Origin: Gemmatimonadota bacterium | GTDB taxonomy: Bacteria > Gemmatimonadota > Gemmatimonadetes > Palauibacterales > Palauibacteraceae | Reading direction: 5' to 3' | Length of the DNA stretch: 64,000 nucleotides | Assembly (NCBI GenBank): GCA_963666735.1 | Contig: OY762926.1 | Span: 3,456,001-3,520,000 of the forward strand | Shown here: in pieces, positions 33,001 to 42,000 of the stretch | Layout: every line of letters begins with the position of its first letter | Numbering within the stretch: the stretch's first letter is position 1 | Made by a program: the position numbers

Positions 33001-36000
33001 AGCGCGACGCCCCCGCGCGGGAACCGGACGGCGATCGGGGCCCCGAGAAGGACGAAGACGATGCACGCGGCCGGGATCGTCCCCTTCTTGTGAATCTCGA
33101 CCCAGTACTGGTTGATCCGGCGAAGGCCCGTGTTCTCGCGCTCCGCGTAGGACTGGAACTGGTTCGCCGCATCGAATGCGGAGTAGAAGCGGCGGGCTGC
33201 GCTCTCGGCGACCTGTGTCGTGGAGTCCGGCGCGGTGGCCTGGATCTCGCGCCGCGCGGGCGCCCCCGATGCCGCGGGAAGGTCGTCTTCCCCGTCGCGG
33301 CGATCGACTTCCCGCGCGGGAATGTCGCGTTTCAGGTCGGGGATGTCCCCATTCCAGTCGGGGGTCTCGCCTCCCCGGATACGGGTGCCGCCCGCCGGCC
33401 CGGCCCCGCCGCGAACCGGCGCGTCCGCCAGAGGCTGCTCGAAATCCAGCAGCATTTCGGTGATCGCCCGGGCGTATACCAGGCTCTCCGAGCGCGCCGC
33501 GTCCGCCATCTCCCTGCCGCGATCCGCCTCCGCGCGCATGTCGGCGATGTTCATTTCGCGGTCGCCGCGTATGGCGGCGGTATCGCGCTCGAGCCCGTTC
33601 GCCACATCCGGGATCTTGAGCAGCATCCGCTCGAAGGCGATGCGCCGAAAGGCGTGCGGGCGCTCGTTCAGCCGCACCTGGACGACGCCGTCCTCGAGAT
33701 CGAAGTAGAGGTCCTCCCCTTCTTCCGAGAAGCCCATCTTCCCGCGCGCCGCGTAGATGGAGCGGCTCTCCTGGCCGTTTCGCTCATCGTAGATCGCGAC
33801 ATCGTGGACCACGCTCTCTTCCCGGTCGATCGTGCCGGGGTGCACGTACACATAGGACGGCAGCACCTCATTGATCGTATGTTCCCGAAGGTTGAAGGTC
33901 GGCGTCTTGCGGCCGATCCCCGTGAGCAGCACCTGCAGGTGATGATTCGACTGCGGCAGGACCGTGTTGTTGAACCAGGTCATTCCGCCGGCCAGGATGA
34001 CGGCGCAGACGAGGAGCGGGGCCATCACGCGCGACAGCGGGATGCCGCTCGCCTTGACGGCGGTGATCTCGAAGTCGCCCTCCATCCGGCTGAAGACGTA
34101 CAGGACCGCGATGAGCACGGCCATCGGCAGGGTCTGCGCGATGATGAAGGGGATCGAATAGACGAAGACCTCGGCGATCACGGTCCACTCGAGGTCCTTG
34201 CCGATGAGCCGCTCGAAGCGCTTGCTCACCTGATCGAGGAGGAGCAGCACCGTGGTGCCGATGATGGCGAAGATGAACGGTCCGGCGTGACGGCGCAGGA
34301 TATAGCGGGTAAGAGTTCGCATCGCCCCGAGATTACTGTGTTTTGGGGCCGTTGTCAGCCCGGGCGGGTCTTCCCGGGGCCGGTTCGGCCCCGAGGTTTC
34401 GTCACGATCCGCCAGCCCATGTACCGGAATGCAGGCCGATAGATCCCCCCGAGGCGCGGGCGCTCCGCCGCGCCGGGTCGCCCTCGTGCTCATGAGCGCG
34501 GTGGGAAGCACCGTCCAGGGGTTGCCCGTTGTAGCGTCCCTCCGGCGGGCCTGGCCCGCCGCACACATCACTTGGGTGCTGCAACCGGGTCCGGCCGCGC
34601 TGATGGCCGGCCGGCCGGACGTCGACCGGCTCCTGCTCTTCCACCGGCGGCTCGGCGCCCGTGCCTATTCCCGCTTTCGTCGCGAAGTGGCGGGAGAAGC
34701 GTTCGATCTCGTCATCTGTCTGCAGCCGAACTTCAAGGGAGGGATGGTCACGCGTCTCCTCCGCGCCCCGGAGCGCCTGGGTCACGACCGCGCGCGCGCC
34801 CGCGACCTGAGCTGGATGGCCACGAACCGCCGCATCCCGCCGGCTCCCGTGGCCCACACTCAGGACGAACTGTTCGAGTTTCTCGATCATCTCGGCGTCC
34901 CGCGACGCCTGGAGTGGCGTTTTCATTTCACCGAAGAGGAGCGGCGGGTTTCGGCGCGGTGGCGGGAGGGATTCGCGCGCCCGGTGCTCGCGGTCGTGCC
35001 GCGGAGTTCCAATCCCCGGAGGAATTGGACCCTCGAGGGGACCGCGCGGGTAATCGACGTGGCGGCCGGTGATCTGGGCCTTCAGCCGGTGCTCCTGGGA
35101 GGAGACTCCGAAGAGGAACTGCGGGATGCCCACCGACTCGAGAAGTTGTGCGGGGTTCCGCCGCGCGTGGCGCTGGGAGGGACGCTGAGGGAGTTGGCGG
35201 GCCGGCTCTCCGCGAGCGATCTCGTGCTGGCGCCGGACACGGGTCCCCTGCACATGGCGGTGGCGCTGGGGACGCCGACCATCGGACTGTACGGGTATAC
35301 GGACCCGGAACGCAGCGGTCCCTACGGGCGGTTCACGGATCTCACCGTGGACCGGTTTCGTGGCCCGGCCGGCCCCGACGGCGAGCGAAGGCCGTCCCGG
35401 GCCACTCGACCCGGACGCATGAGGAGGATCCGGGCCGAGGAGGTCGTGCTTAAGCTGGAGGGAGCCATCCGTTCATATCTGAACACCTGAAAGGCCGTAC
35501 ATGACCGAAGGGACGAAGACGGTGGCGGGCCGGATACTCTGGGTGGACGACGAAGTCGACCTGCTGCGTCCGCATCTCATGCTGCTGCGGTCGTCGGGGT
35601 ATCGCGTCGATGCGGTGATGAACGGCCAGGACGCGATGGAACTCCTGACGGCGGTGTCCTACGATCTCGTGCTGCTGGACGAGCGGATGCCGGGGCTGCG
35701 CGGGATCGAGGTTCTCGACCGCATCCGGAGTTTTTCCCCGCGCCTCCCCGTGGTGATGGTCACGAAGAGCGAAGAGGAATCGACCATGCACGAGGCGATC
35801 GGACGGCGGGCGGACGACTACATCGTCAAGCCGACGAGCCCCCGGCAGGTGCTGTCGGTCGTGACCCGGCTCCTCGCCGGCCCGGCGCTGCGCCACGAGC
35901 ACATCACGCGCGATTTCTCACGGCGTTTCGGCGAGTTGCGGGAGCGGGTCTCCACGGCGGCTTCGTGGCGGGACTGGGCCGACCTGTACTCCGAGCTGGT

Positions 36001-39000: not shown

Positions 39001-42000
39001 CGGCCTGCATCTCGGACTGCGCGCCGCGCCGGACCCGGTGGCGCTCGGGACCGGCCGGGCGCTCGGAGCGCTGTGTCGCGACCCTCTCCGCGTCCGTCGC
39101 CGCGTGGTCGACGCCCAACTCGCCGCAAGTTTCCCGGCTGCCACACCGCGCTGGGTGCGCGACACGGCTCGCGCCTGCTACCGCCACTTCGGCCAGGAGG
39201 CCGCGCTCCTCATGGGCGGTGCGCCCCGGATCGAGCGGATGCTGCCTCGCGTCGCCGACGAGGCCGGGCTGGGCCCGCGCCTGCACGCGGCGACCGCGGA
39301 GCGGGACGGCGCCGTGGTCGTCTCCGGGCACCTCGGCAACTGGGAGCTCGGAGGGGCGGCCGTGCGGGCGCTCGGAGTGCGCGTGACGGCGGTCGTGCAG
39401 CGTCAGCGAGGCGCCTTCGGCCGTCGGCTGGGCGAGTTGCGCTCGCGGCTGGGACTGGACGTGCTCGACCGCGACGCGGCGGCGCGGCCGGCGCTCGACG
39501 CGCTCCGCTCGGGCCGGGTTCTCGCCCTCGTGGCCGATCAGCACACCCGGCGGGCCAGCGCCCCGGTCGACTTTCTGGGTCGCCCCGCCTGGACATCGCT
39601 CGCCCCGGCGCGTTTGTGTCTCGCGGCCGATGTCCCTCTCTTCTTCGCGGCTCTGGTTCGAGACCCATCGGGGTACAGGATCGTCCATGAAGAGATCGAC
39701 GGCGGCCGGTCCGGCGCCGCCGGGGATCCGGTCGAGCTCACAAAGGGGTGGGTTCGGGTGTTGGAGAGGGAGGTCGAACGGCGGCCGGAGCAGTATTTCT
39801 GGTTCCACCGGCGCTGGAAGCGGGTGGCGCAACGCGGAGAGGGCGCGTGATTCACATCGGGATTCCGGTTCACAACGAACGCGATACCATCGGCCCGCTG
39901 CTGTGGCGGATCCGCGAACTGCTCTACGGCGAGCGGCGGCAGTTTCACGTGCTCGTGTGCGATGACGCCTCGGACGACGGGACGGGCGAGGCGCTCGACC
40001 GATATCCGCGGGTGCTTCCGCTGACCGTGCTCCGCAACGAGGAGCGGCAGGGCTACGCCGCGAGCCTCGACCGGCTGATCGGGGCGACGCTGCACCGCTC
40101 GGGTTATCCGCGCCGCGACGCGTTCGTCTCCATGCAGGGCGATTTCTCCGATCCGCCCGAGCGCTTGCCGGAGATGCTTCGCCGCTTCGAGGGCGGCGCA
40201 GATCTCGTCACGGTCGCGCGTGGTGATTCGGAACCCTTCACCCGCCGTCTGACCCGGGCCGGGGGCCGGCTCTGTGCCCGTCATCTGCTGTCGGCTCCAG
40301 CCGTGACGGACCCCTACGCTTCTCTTCGGTTATATAGGTTGTTCGCTCTGGAACGCGCCGTCGCCGCCGGCGATGGGCAGCTGTTGCAGTATGAGGGTTG
40401 GGCCGCCAACGCCGCGCTGCTCCTGCAGGTGTGGCCGTTTGTACGAAGATTCGAGGAGATTCCGCATGATCCGCACTCCCTCCGCCGATACCGTGACGCC
40501 CGTTTCCGGGCCGGCGAGCAACTCCGGCAGCTGTTCGCCGCCGGCCGGGACCGCGCGCTGCGCGAGATCGGCCGGCAGATCGCCGCAGCGGCCTGACATG
40601 CGGAGACGAAACCTCCGTCGCGGCGCCTTGGCGTGCCTGGCGCTCCTGGCCGCTTCGATTCCGGGTACATCCGACCTCGCCGGGCAGGGTAGCGCGGGCG
40701 AGGTGGCCGATGACTTCTTCTCCGAGAGCTGGCCGTTCGAGATCGGGGAGACCTCCGAGTACGCCGTGCTGTTCGGGCCGGTGAACTTCGGGCGCATGCA
40801 CCTCCGGGTCGAAGCGCAGGATACGATCCGCGGCACGCCGGCCTACCGGCTCTCGATGGAGATGAAGGGGGGCGTCCCCTTCTACAGGATGGATGACCGC
40901 ACGGTGAGTTGGCTTGCCCCCGATCCCTACCGGTCGCTCCGCTTCGAAGAGAATCTGCGGCAGGGGGGATACCGCAGGCAGCGCCGCTGGGAGCTGGATC
41001 ACGAGGCTCTCGCCGCCACGAGACAGGACTGGAACGAGGAGGCGGAGGCCTATCTTCCGCACCGCCGGCAGCGGGATCTTCCAATGCCCCCGGGCGCGCT
41101 CGACGAGATCTCCTACCTCTACCTGATCCGGACTCTTCCGCTGGAGGTCGGCCGAACGTACGAGTTCGACCGCTACTTCGAGGAGGACGGCAATCCCGTC
41201 GTCGTCGAGGTTCTCCGCCGCGAGCGCGTGCGCGTGCCGGCGGGGACGTTCGACACGATCGTCCTGCGTCCGACCATTCAGACCGATGGCCTGTTCGGAG
41301 AGGAGGGGCAGGCCGAGGTCTTCATCTCGGACGATGATCGTCGCCTCATCGTGCAGATCAGGAGCCGCATGAAGATCGGCGGGGTCGACATGTATCTTCG
41401 CGGCTTCGAGCAGAACGAGGCGGAGACCGGTCGCTGACATCCGGACCCGGGCGGGCGGAGAGCGCCGCTGCGGTGCGGTACTCCCTTTTTGCCGTGGTGC
41501 GTCCTAGGTTAGTCTTGAGGCCTGTACAGAGACGACGACCACCAGGAGGTGCCTTGAGCAAAGGAAATCATGTGCCGAATTCAACCGACCGGGCCCGCGA
41601 CGAGTTGTTCAGCCACATCCGCCGCTGTGGCGTGCTCGACGCGGAAGATGAGCAGCGGCAAGAGTGGTTCGACGATACGATCCAGTACCTCGGAGAGCGG
41701 TATCCGGAGTTGACGCCGGGTGAGCTGTCCGTCCTGCGCACCATCGGAGAGCGGTACTGTGCCCCGGCGATCCCGCACGGAGGCGCGGCCCGGCAGTCAA
41801 AGCAGGAAGCCCACTAGCAGCCCGATCGAGGACCACCGGCGAGGTAACGTAGCCTGAACGAACCCCCGCCCCCGGACAGACCGGGAGCCACACCATCCGC
41901 TAGTCGGACCGCCGAATGGACCTCGGACTCGTTCTGAGGCTCGGCGCGGTCCTCGCGCTCGTAGCGGCGAACGCCTTCTTCGTCGCGGCGGAGTTTGCGC

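Follow-up and report, generated by a model that had tools for sequence, protein, structure and literature searches.

The window, a 64,000-nt stretch of a Gemmatimonadota contig (OY762926.1, positions 3,456,001 to 3,520,000), carries a gene for a PorX-type response regulator within a run of envelope genes. The features, in window positions except for the last, are these:

30756-31748, plus strand: gmd, GDP-mannose 4,6-dehydratase (TIGR01472, 428 bits against a cut-off of 415)
31745-32821, minus strand: lptG (PF03739; TIGR04408 best)
32826-34322, minus strand: lptF (PF03739; TIGR04407 best)
34429-35490, plus strand: GT9 heptosyltransferase-family glycosyltransferase (PF01075; below every NCBIfam heptosyltransferase cut-off)
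35501-37075, plus strand: porX, an ORF of 524 aa (Pfam Response_reg and PglZ)
37080-38918, plus strand: MsbA-like ABC exporter (PF00664 and PF00005; best NCBIfam model TIGR02203 MsbA, 453 bits, below its cut-off of 602)
38915-39850, plus strand: LpxL-family lipid A acyltransferase (PF03279)
39847-40596, plus strand: GT2 glycosyltransferase (PF00535)
40598-41437, plus strand: DUF3108 protein (PF11306; start read from the junction)
contig 913306-914532, minus strand: putative PorX kinase of 409 aa with two TM helices and His192, unlinked to porX

Only 10 nt separate the GT9 gene from porX, and 4 nt the porX stop from the msbA-like gene; the msbA-like and lpxL-like genes overlap by 4 nt, as do the lpxL-like and GT2 genes. 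The placement of porX between GT9 and msbA-lpxL-like genes, described in an earlier note on this DNA, is borne out by the Pfam and NCBIfam assignments of the neighbours, which give a GT9-porX-msbA-lpxL run. Divergent from GT9-porX, with 106 nt between starts, is lptF, and gmd is convergent with lptG; in four other genomes of the phylum sprA occupies the place divergent from lptF. The layout is not an assembly artefact, since a run from another study has positions 31000-42000 in a single contig, with 40 differences. Assembled contigs of RNA runs cover the locus flatly on both strands and are uninformative for expression or co-transcription, and a sigma-70 promoter scan of 31000-42000, with 0 sites, is also uninformative.

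Judged by its sequence and predicted structure, the gene is a true, intact and ordinary PorX, and standard annotation names it as such. The match to the NCBIfam model T9SS_RR_PorX (NF052313) reaches 526.8 bits against a cut-off of 300 and covers model positions 2-513 of 513; that to P. gingivalis PorX (PDB 7PV7) is full-length (E 3.1e-111), with the active sites aligned, and the claim of full-length orthology made earlier stands. A receiver (about 11-125), a three-helix bundle and a PglZ phosphodiesterase make up the protein, and the folds of all three are present in its AlphaFold2 model (pLDDT 94.7; TM 0.94 to 7PVK). The architecture is that of P. gingivalis PorX (7PV7, 7PVA, 7PVK; PMC9757075), with 35% identity, TM 0.94 and rmsd 1.8 A, and the F. 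johnsoniae protein (8TED, 8P6F; PMC11320123, PMC10951265) is likewise matched over its full length (E 8e-103, TM 0.90-0.91). With residue roles taken from PMC9757075 and PMC11320123, receiver residues D16/D17/D60/T88/Y107/K110 correspond to P. gingivalis D14/D15/D58/T86/Y105/K108, all kept, D60 being the predicted phospho-acceptor. The two-zinc site and nucleophile, D243/T276/D366/H370/D420/H421, correspond to D239/T272/D361/H365/D415/H416, again kept, with T276 the probable nucleophile and H506 the C-terminal His. Twelve active-site residues are invariant in 18/18 proteins from SprA-less and 34/34 from SprA-bearing Gemmatimonadota, which, in the former set and together with the low dN/dS given below, rules out a pseudogene or relaxed selection. 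At the dimer interface, the residue comparison places S390/T394 where S385/S389 stand.

Two other identities or associations fall away. The window protein shares the alkaline-phosphatase-superfamily core of BREX PglZ (9ZN5, TM 0.44) but, unlike it, has a receiver; its score with NF033449, 65.7 bits, is far under the cut-off of 250, and the annotated neighbours of porX are LPS genes, with no BREX genes among them. A UbK/TsaE link, for its part, is ruled out for Gemmatimonadota PorX: tsaE adjoins porX in 28/45 Bacteroidia-clade loci, and in loci of KSB1, Chlorobia, Ignavibacteria, Latescibacterota and Fibrobacteres, but no mapped Gemmatimonadota locus has this arrangement, while the UbK1 site of the P. 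gingivalis protein, Y79, is R81 here. Unlike the P. gingivalis gene, the window porX has no tsaE/ubK beside it and precedes msbA.

PorX was held to be near-universal in Gemmatimonadota, and it is over cut-off in 184/201 genomes (185 being counted as PorX-bearing and 16 as PorX-less in the co-occurrence tallies). In a FastTree tree, whose support values are SH-like only, 72 Gemmatimonadota PorX rows form one branch (100) that follows taxonomy and lies beside Latescibacterota/Fibrobacterota. Horizontal import from Bacteroidota is unsupported by that tree, and the window protein was probably inherited vertically within the FCB group. A plasmid collection yielded one Prevotella record, unannotated.

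That this genome has no T9SS families, as first read from tables, is now confirmed with positive controls matching. A profile search gave 0 SprA candidates, tblastn with 13 SprA proteins found two short matches only (at most 47 bits), and PorV, PorU, CTD cargo, PorP and GldL/GldM gave nothing over cut-off. Unlike in P. gingivalis, T9SS, PorL and CTD cargo are undetected in this genome. The window's genus lost T9SS secondarily: sprA is found in 0/36 of its genomes, the syntenic sites of sprA and porV are empty, and porX and the kinase are kept.

The implication of a T9SS-less phylum does not survive. SprA is over cut-off in 155/201 Gemmatimonadota genomes, and the PorV family in 17/17 SprA-bearing and 0/19 SprA-less ones, tracking SprA in 36/36; the sole PDB match of the SprA of one genome (G204) is F. 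johnsoniae SprA, and that of Gemmatimonadota PorV is weak (E 0.024). The Pfam tables looked T9SS-free because Pfam misses this PorV family: PF19572 does not detect it, and two such proteins have no Pfam match. Components of the motor are another matter. GldM was found in 0/36 genomes of the phylum, GldN in 0/3, and GldL, the partner of F. johnsoniae PorX, in 0/3 (this genome and two SprA-bearing ones, with both controls matched), all of these searches being of a kind that could miss distant homologues. Three genomes of other classes (G002, G003, G009) have 24-80 CTD matches each, with porU next to porV. PorU and type A CTDs largely escape detection in class Gemmatimonadetes, where most genomes have 0-1 CTD matches and G105 has 6. 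A precedent is at hand in the 'Incertae sedis' Bacteroidetes, for which PMC7323717 lists Sov/SprA, PorV, PorU, PorX and PorY without PorK/L/M/N. The same reduced pattern is seen in SprA-bearing Gemmatimonadota and in genome G203; that account covers Bacteroidetes only, and unlike its set class Gemmatimonadetes is mostly without detected PorU and type A CTDs.

The earlier note had no kinase adjoining porX, which is true at the locus. PorX as a kinase-less orphan is nevertheless rejected, given an unlinked candidate kinase, encoded in the order serS-HK-pcrA, that is present in 184/185 PorX-bearing and 2/16 PorX-less genomes, an agreement with PorX presence of 198/201. It is found in 36/36 genomes of the window's genus, and in 5/5 PorX-less genomes examined it is missing from between serS and pcrA. 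Its H-box family is that of kinases encoded directly upstream of porX at three loci (L074, L088, L098), and a kinase of this family is single copy in Pedobacter, Marinoscillum and Alistipes. No NCBIfam PorY model matches it, and it is a putative PorY. PorX and PorY genes are unlinked in P. gingivalis also (PMC8050853).

Linkage of porX to LPS genes was claimed as a feature of the phylum, and here the outcome is mixed. The neighbours are as described, with msbA directly after porX in 40/43 class-Gemmatimonadetes loci with downstream sequence and in 0/8 loci of other classes, all 8 of which have a GT9 gene near porX (three loci cut at a contig end are left out of these counts). The msbA linkage is therefore class-level, not phylum-wide, and LPS neighbours are no Gemmatimonadota speciality, as lpxC lies near porX in 15/45 Bacteroidia-clade loci. 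One could still argue that in Gemmatimonadota PorX serves specifically to regulate LPS/lipid A export, e.g. by acting on MsbA, and does so independently of T9SS throughout the phylum. The class-wide msbA adjacency, a strong conservation that may have more meaning than it has been credited with, would fit, as would the GT9 genes of the other classes, the 4-nt gap in the window, and the lipid A genes of Bacteroidia if read as an ancient LPS link. However, the last also weaken the argument, since those Bacteroidia bear T9SS, and so does the retention of LPS genes where PorX is gone: all 16 PorX-less genomes keep lpxC, msbA, GT9 or lpxL is retained in PorX-less genomes with porX cleanly gone, and five keep the msbA cluster from which porX has been removed. 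The partner gene varies by lineage (msbA, GT9, lpxD-lpxC), G135 and G066 have porX without adjoining msbA, and with SprA in 155/201 genomes and PorX loss tracking SprA loss the proposal is unlikely.

Retention after T9SS loss is the more telling feature. Loss of PorX is concentrated in SprA-less genomes (13/45, against 3/156 SprA-bearing), yet at least five separate losses of sprA left porX in place, the SprA-less calls outside the window's genus coming from a first-look filter on partly draft genomes, with PorV absence backing 12/32. In the window's genus porX is present in 35/36 genomes, and its dN/dS is 0.060 (36 pairs), against 0.06-0.16 in SprA-bearing genera; a value about 0.06 holds for two SprA-less genera. 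The low value could in part be a trace of time before sprA loss. Retention of PorX chiefly for a housekeeping role, as a nanoRNase/pGpG phosphodiesterase with envelope signalling secondary, is decidedly unlikely. Cleavage of linear oligonucleotides by PorX, with nanoRNA turnover suggested by the authors (PMC9757075), invariant catalytic residues and a constraint stronger than that on a neighbour (0.061 for porX against 0.143 for msbA, one pair) are consistent with such a role, but a stand-alone nuclease would need no membrane kinase kept and lost along with it, and the receiver residues are invariant too. That the pair are unpurged relics is very improbable and already largely refuted, for although 13/45 SprA-less genomes lost both genes and loss thus follows T9SS loss in some lineages, 18/18 SprA-less proteins have open frames and invariant sites, dN/dS stays about 0.06, and the genus keeps porX with PorX identity ranging down to 68%.

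We consider it probable, then, that this is a PorX/PorY-type regulator of the FCB group whose genus lost T9SS and kept the pair for a second, T9SS-independent output. The unlinked membrane kinase would autophosphorylate and pass phosphate to D60; phosphorylated PorX would, by analogy, dimerise, and its two-zinc PglZ site cleave short oligoribonucleotides, as shown for P. gingivalis PorX (PMC9757075). In most Gemmatimonadota the pair coexists with a reduced T9SS of SprA and PorV, joined by PorU and many putative CTD cargo proteins in three genomes of other classes, with no recognisable GldL/M/N motor. After the deletion of sprA and porV in the window's genus both partners stayed under purifying selection, and such persistence, with the low dN/dS and the repeated retention after sprA loss, implies the second output. 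This is most likely a general outer-membrane or envelope-status signal, roles beyond secretion having been argued in PMC13241743; the position in the msbA-lpxL run may give co-expression with envelope genes, PorX itself probably not being needed for LPS synthesis or export. The T9SS-independent role proposed earlier is supported for SprA-less lineages only, where PorX is retained with its kinase under purifying selection, and not phylum-wide, given that 153/185 PorX-bearing genomes have SprA as well and that PorX loss falls in SprA-less genomes.

A broader reading is possible, though on the unlikely side: PorX/PorY would be an ancient FCB envelope-status pair whose oligonucleotide-cleaving output controls outer-membrane (LPS) assembly, T9SS being only one output. 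Most Gemmatimonadota would in addition run a motor-less SprA-PorV translocon whose cargo signal goes unrecognised, and the type IV pilus ATPases whose genes directly follow sprA might power it. The core function of the pair would then be exposed in lineages that have it still but lost T9SS, namely this genus, other Gemmatimonadota and apparently Alistipes.

PorX is known as a T9SS regulator; of interest here is the retention of PorX and its likely kinase after T9SS loss in this genus. The T9SS pore is the rule and not the exception in Gemmatimonadota, in motor-less form. PorY has been doubted as the main kinase of P. gingivalis PorX (PMC9757075); the co-inheritance in 198/201 genomes supports a dedicated pair. 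Lineages with the pair and without T9SS are natural test cases for a T9SS-independent job of PorX, and bear on the question of the substrate and output of its enzyme domain.

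The gene under study is a genuine, ordinary PorX, the response regulator of Bacteroidota's type IX secretion system (T9SS), and in this the earlier note was right. Its 524-aa product, with receiver and PglZ domains, scores 526.8 bits with the NCBIfam PorX equivalog (cut-off 300), residues 11-523 align to P. gingivalis PorX (7PV7; E 3.1e-111), and an AlphaFold2 model (pLDDT 94.7) fits 7PVK at TM 0.94 and an rmsd of 1.8 A. By alignment, the receiver-site residues (D16, D17, D60, T88, Y107, K110) and those of the two-zinc site (D243, T276, D366, H370, D420, H421, H506) are kept, with residue roles as given in excerpts of PMC9757075 and, for the C-terminal His of the metal site, PMC11320123. 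The gene sits in a compact run, GT9-porX-msbA-like-lpxL-like-GT2-DUF3108, divergent from lptF-lptG, and window 31000-42000 was recovered as a single contig in a sequencing run of another study. Window coordinates are as follows.

29497-30549 (- strand): GIY-YIG protein (UvrC-like N-terminal), adjoining gmd
35501-37075 (+ strand): porX
41473-41817 (+ strand): 114-aa ORF with no Pfam match, conserved behind DUF3108 both within the genus and at loci L032, L037, L149 and L176
47157-48683 (- strand): 508-aa ORF, DDE-transposase-like by eye

The near-universality claimed for PorX in Gemmatimonadota is borne out in an even sample, where 184 of 201 genomes are over cut-off; one more with a strong partial match is grouped with them (185), and the 16 scored PorX-less have receiver-level matches alone, best E 1e-22 or weaker. 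(Four unpublished genomes, G057, G097, G157 and G182, count toward the tallies over the 201, and G097 is among the 16.) Among named genomes, the 80 loci kept out of 596 confirmed also place PorX in KSB1, Calditrichota, Chlorobia, Ignavibacteria, Latescibacterota, Fibrobacterota and Bacteroidia. FastTree, run on 128 full-length proteins with 10 duplicates and partial rows set aside, puts the 72 Gemmatimonadota rows on a single branch (support 100) matching family and class, a pattern of vertical inheritance from an FCB ancestor. Contig L074, labelled Gemmatimonadetes by its depositor, clusters with Latescibacterota. A contig labelled Competibacteraceae (L083) has a Bacteroidia-type porX locus with HD-lpxD-lpxC, tsaE and alanine dehydrogenase, clusters with Bacteroidia, and is probably mislabelled or mis-binned. 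A 1.77 Mb Prevotella record filed as a plasmid (L031, NC_022111.1) carries porX-tsaE and looks like a chromosome.

The idea of a phylum devoid of T9SS has to be given up. The model for the pore protein SprA (TIGR04189), whose controls (Pedobacter, Marinoscillum, one genome labelled Chlorobiaceae and one Gemmatimonadota genome) all matched, is over cut-off in 155 of the 201 genomes (156 with any match; frames of about 2,000 aa), negative calls beyond the window's genus coming from a first-look filter and partly from draft genomes. All 19 genomes of classes other than Gemmatimonadetes have some match, and the sole PDB match of one Gemmatimonadota SprA protein is F. johnsoniae SprA. In a test selection, PorV (NF033709) is over cut-off in 17/17 SprA-bearing and 0/19 SprA-less genomes; the Pfam PorV model misses Gemmatimonadota PorV proteins, which is why T9SS tables were earlier blank. 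GldM (0/36), GldN (0/3) and GldL (0/3) were undetected in the genomes searched, with Bacteroidia controls matching, and PorP was over cut-off in the control alone. Together with the frequency of SprA and PorV, this suggests a reduced, motor-less T9SS gene set in most of the phylum, resembling the 11-component set of 'Incertae sedis' Bacteroidetes as excerpted from PMC7323717.

Three genomes of other classes have 24-80 type A CTD matches and a C25 peptidase adjoining porV, and most genomes of class Gemmatimonadetes have 0-1 CTD matches with PorU undetected. SprA and PorV are retained under the latter circumstances in G067, G142, G061, G040, G204 and other genomes of the class, whose cargo signal may be divergent. 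The order in G204, G067, G142 and G009 is lptG-lptF, divergent sprA, (M28 peptidase), comEA, pilB, pilT, pilC; the same-strand arrangement from sprA to pilC, seen in their contigs (L145, L148, L150, L151) and in L146 of G135, spans two classes with no detectable GldLM motor, and its pilus ATPases might work for the translocon or simply lie next to it. Directly preceding porX, sprA begins a co-directional sprA-porX-tsaE-tsaB-accD run in L056 (1038-11539), L062 and L071, from Chlorobia/Ignavibacteria-like genomes, lptF being divergent in L056; G203, noted alongside them, has at least 111 CTD matches and none to GldM or GldN.

PorX tracks T9SS loosely and tracks tightly an unlinked two-TM histidine kinase. 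Genomes with both SprA and PorX, SprA alone, PorX alone and neither number 153, 3, 32 and 13 (by genus 75, 2, 16 and 5; Fisher p 0.005, kin being non-independent). The kinase is in 184 of 185 PorX-bearing and 2 of 16 PorX-less genomes, the three mismatches being drafts (80-260 contigs). Its usual place is between serS and pcrA (26/28 phylum loci), a site from which it is cleanly lost in 5/5 PorX-less genomes examined. Single orthologues occur in Pedobacter, Marinoscillum, Alistipes, Muribaculaceae and Fibrobacteres. In L074, L088 and L098 a kinase immediately precedes porX, and its best match in the window's genome (409 aa, contig 913306-914532; TM helices 9-30 and 155-175, His192) shares the two-TM build described for PorY in PMC4800418; we infer the kinase to be PorY proper. 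A reverse loss is seen in G179, one of those five PorX-less genomes, with sprA present, porX absent and serS-pcrA adjacent without the kinase. Just past pcrA, near the kinase locus, is a transposase-like ORF by eye (L207 ~3400-4750; contig 909388-910749).

The absence of T9SS from the window's own genome stands after checking with matching controls: SprA TIGR04189 is unmatched there, and tblastn of 13 SprA proteins gave two short matches of at most 47 bits. The comEA-pilB-pilT-pilC run is kept without sprA (contig 1965005-1969490), and the porV site, directly after era in G135, G075 and G204, is empty, the era stop overlapping the next gene's start. Among 36 genomes of the genus, sprA (query from G135, of the same family) is in 0, porX in 35 and the kinase in 36; sprA is present in G075 and G135, of that family, and in G049, of the same order. 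On this gene content, the genus has lost T9SS.

On the PorX tree the SprA-less label, borne by 18 rows, requires five changes or more, and 12 active-site residues are kept in 18/18 SprA-less proteins. Pairwise porX dN/dS (Nei-Gojobori) is 0.060 in the window's genus (36 pairs), 0.057 in a second SprA-less genus, g18 (3 pairs), against 0.06-0.16 in six SprA-bearing genera; for one pair, 0.061 for porX is below 0.143 for msbA and 0.174 for the kinase. Alistipes drafts with porX (L046, L055, L068, L069, L070, L077; 1.6-2.1 Mb, completeness not given) have sprA unseen in 6/6 and the kinase in 3/3 tested, and may be another T9SS-less lineage with PorX, this one within Bacteroidia. Label changes, kept sites, low dN/dS and the Alistipes retention point to a job of the PorX-kinase pair that outlasts T9SS. 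The T9SS-independent role proposed earlier is supported for SprA-less lineages (retention, intact sites, dN/dS about 0.06), its phylum-wide basis having gone with SprA in 155/201. PorX roles beyond secretion, and catalysis non-essential for secretion, are already reported in portions of PMC13241743 and PMC11320123.

The tie to LPS genes survives in part. In class Gemmatimonadetes, msbA comes next after porX in 40 of 43 loci; loci of other classes (0 of 8) do not have it there, GT9 being the near neighbor instead. In the Bacteroidia clade, lpxC-fabZ is within 8 kb in 15/45 loci (many ending early), in a divergent HD-lpxD-lpxC cluster. Gemmatimonadota sprA adjoins lptFG, and porV is 16-17 kb from lpxC in G061, G067 and G142; an envelope neighborhood is then usual for T9SS-linked genes across FCB. 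Since lpxC is kept in 16/16 PorX-less genomes and msbA remains beside GT9 or lpxL in 5/5 examined, PorX is dispensable for persistence of LPS genes. The conserved porX-msbA junction may reflect co-regulation.

Titles and abstracts on PorX with PglZ, or T9SS/SprA with Gemmatimonad, yielded no description of PorX or T9SS survey in Gemmatimonadota, though no search paired PorX with Gemmatimonad; T9SS terms are absent from the main text of the three Gemmatimonadota genomics papers checked, and supplementary gene tables or subscription reviews may already list sprA/porX. Excerpts of PMC11285876 have T9SSs possibly present in Gemmatimonadetes, and those of PMC4793230 have them confined to Bacteroidetes among 2013 genomes. 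Useful, testable additions are the retention of the PorX-kinase pair by T9SS-less lineages and, elsewhere in the phylum, the motor-less SprA-PorV set.
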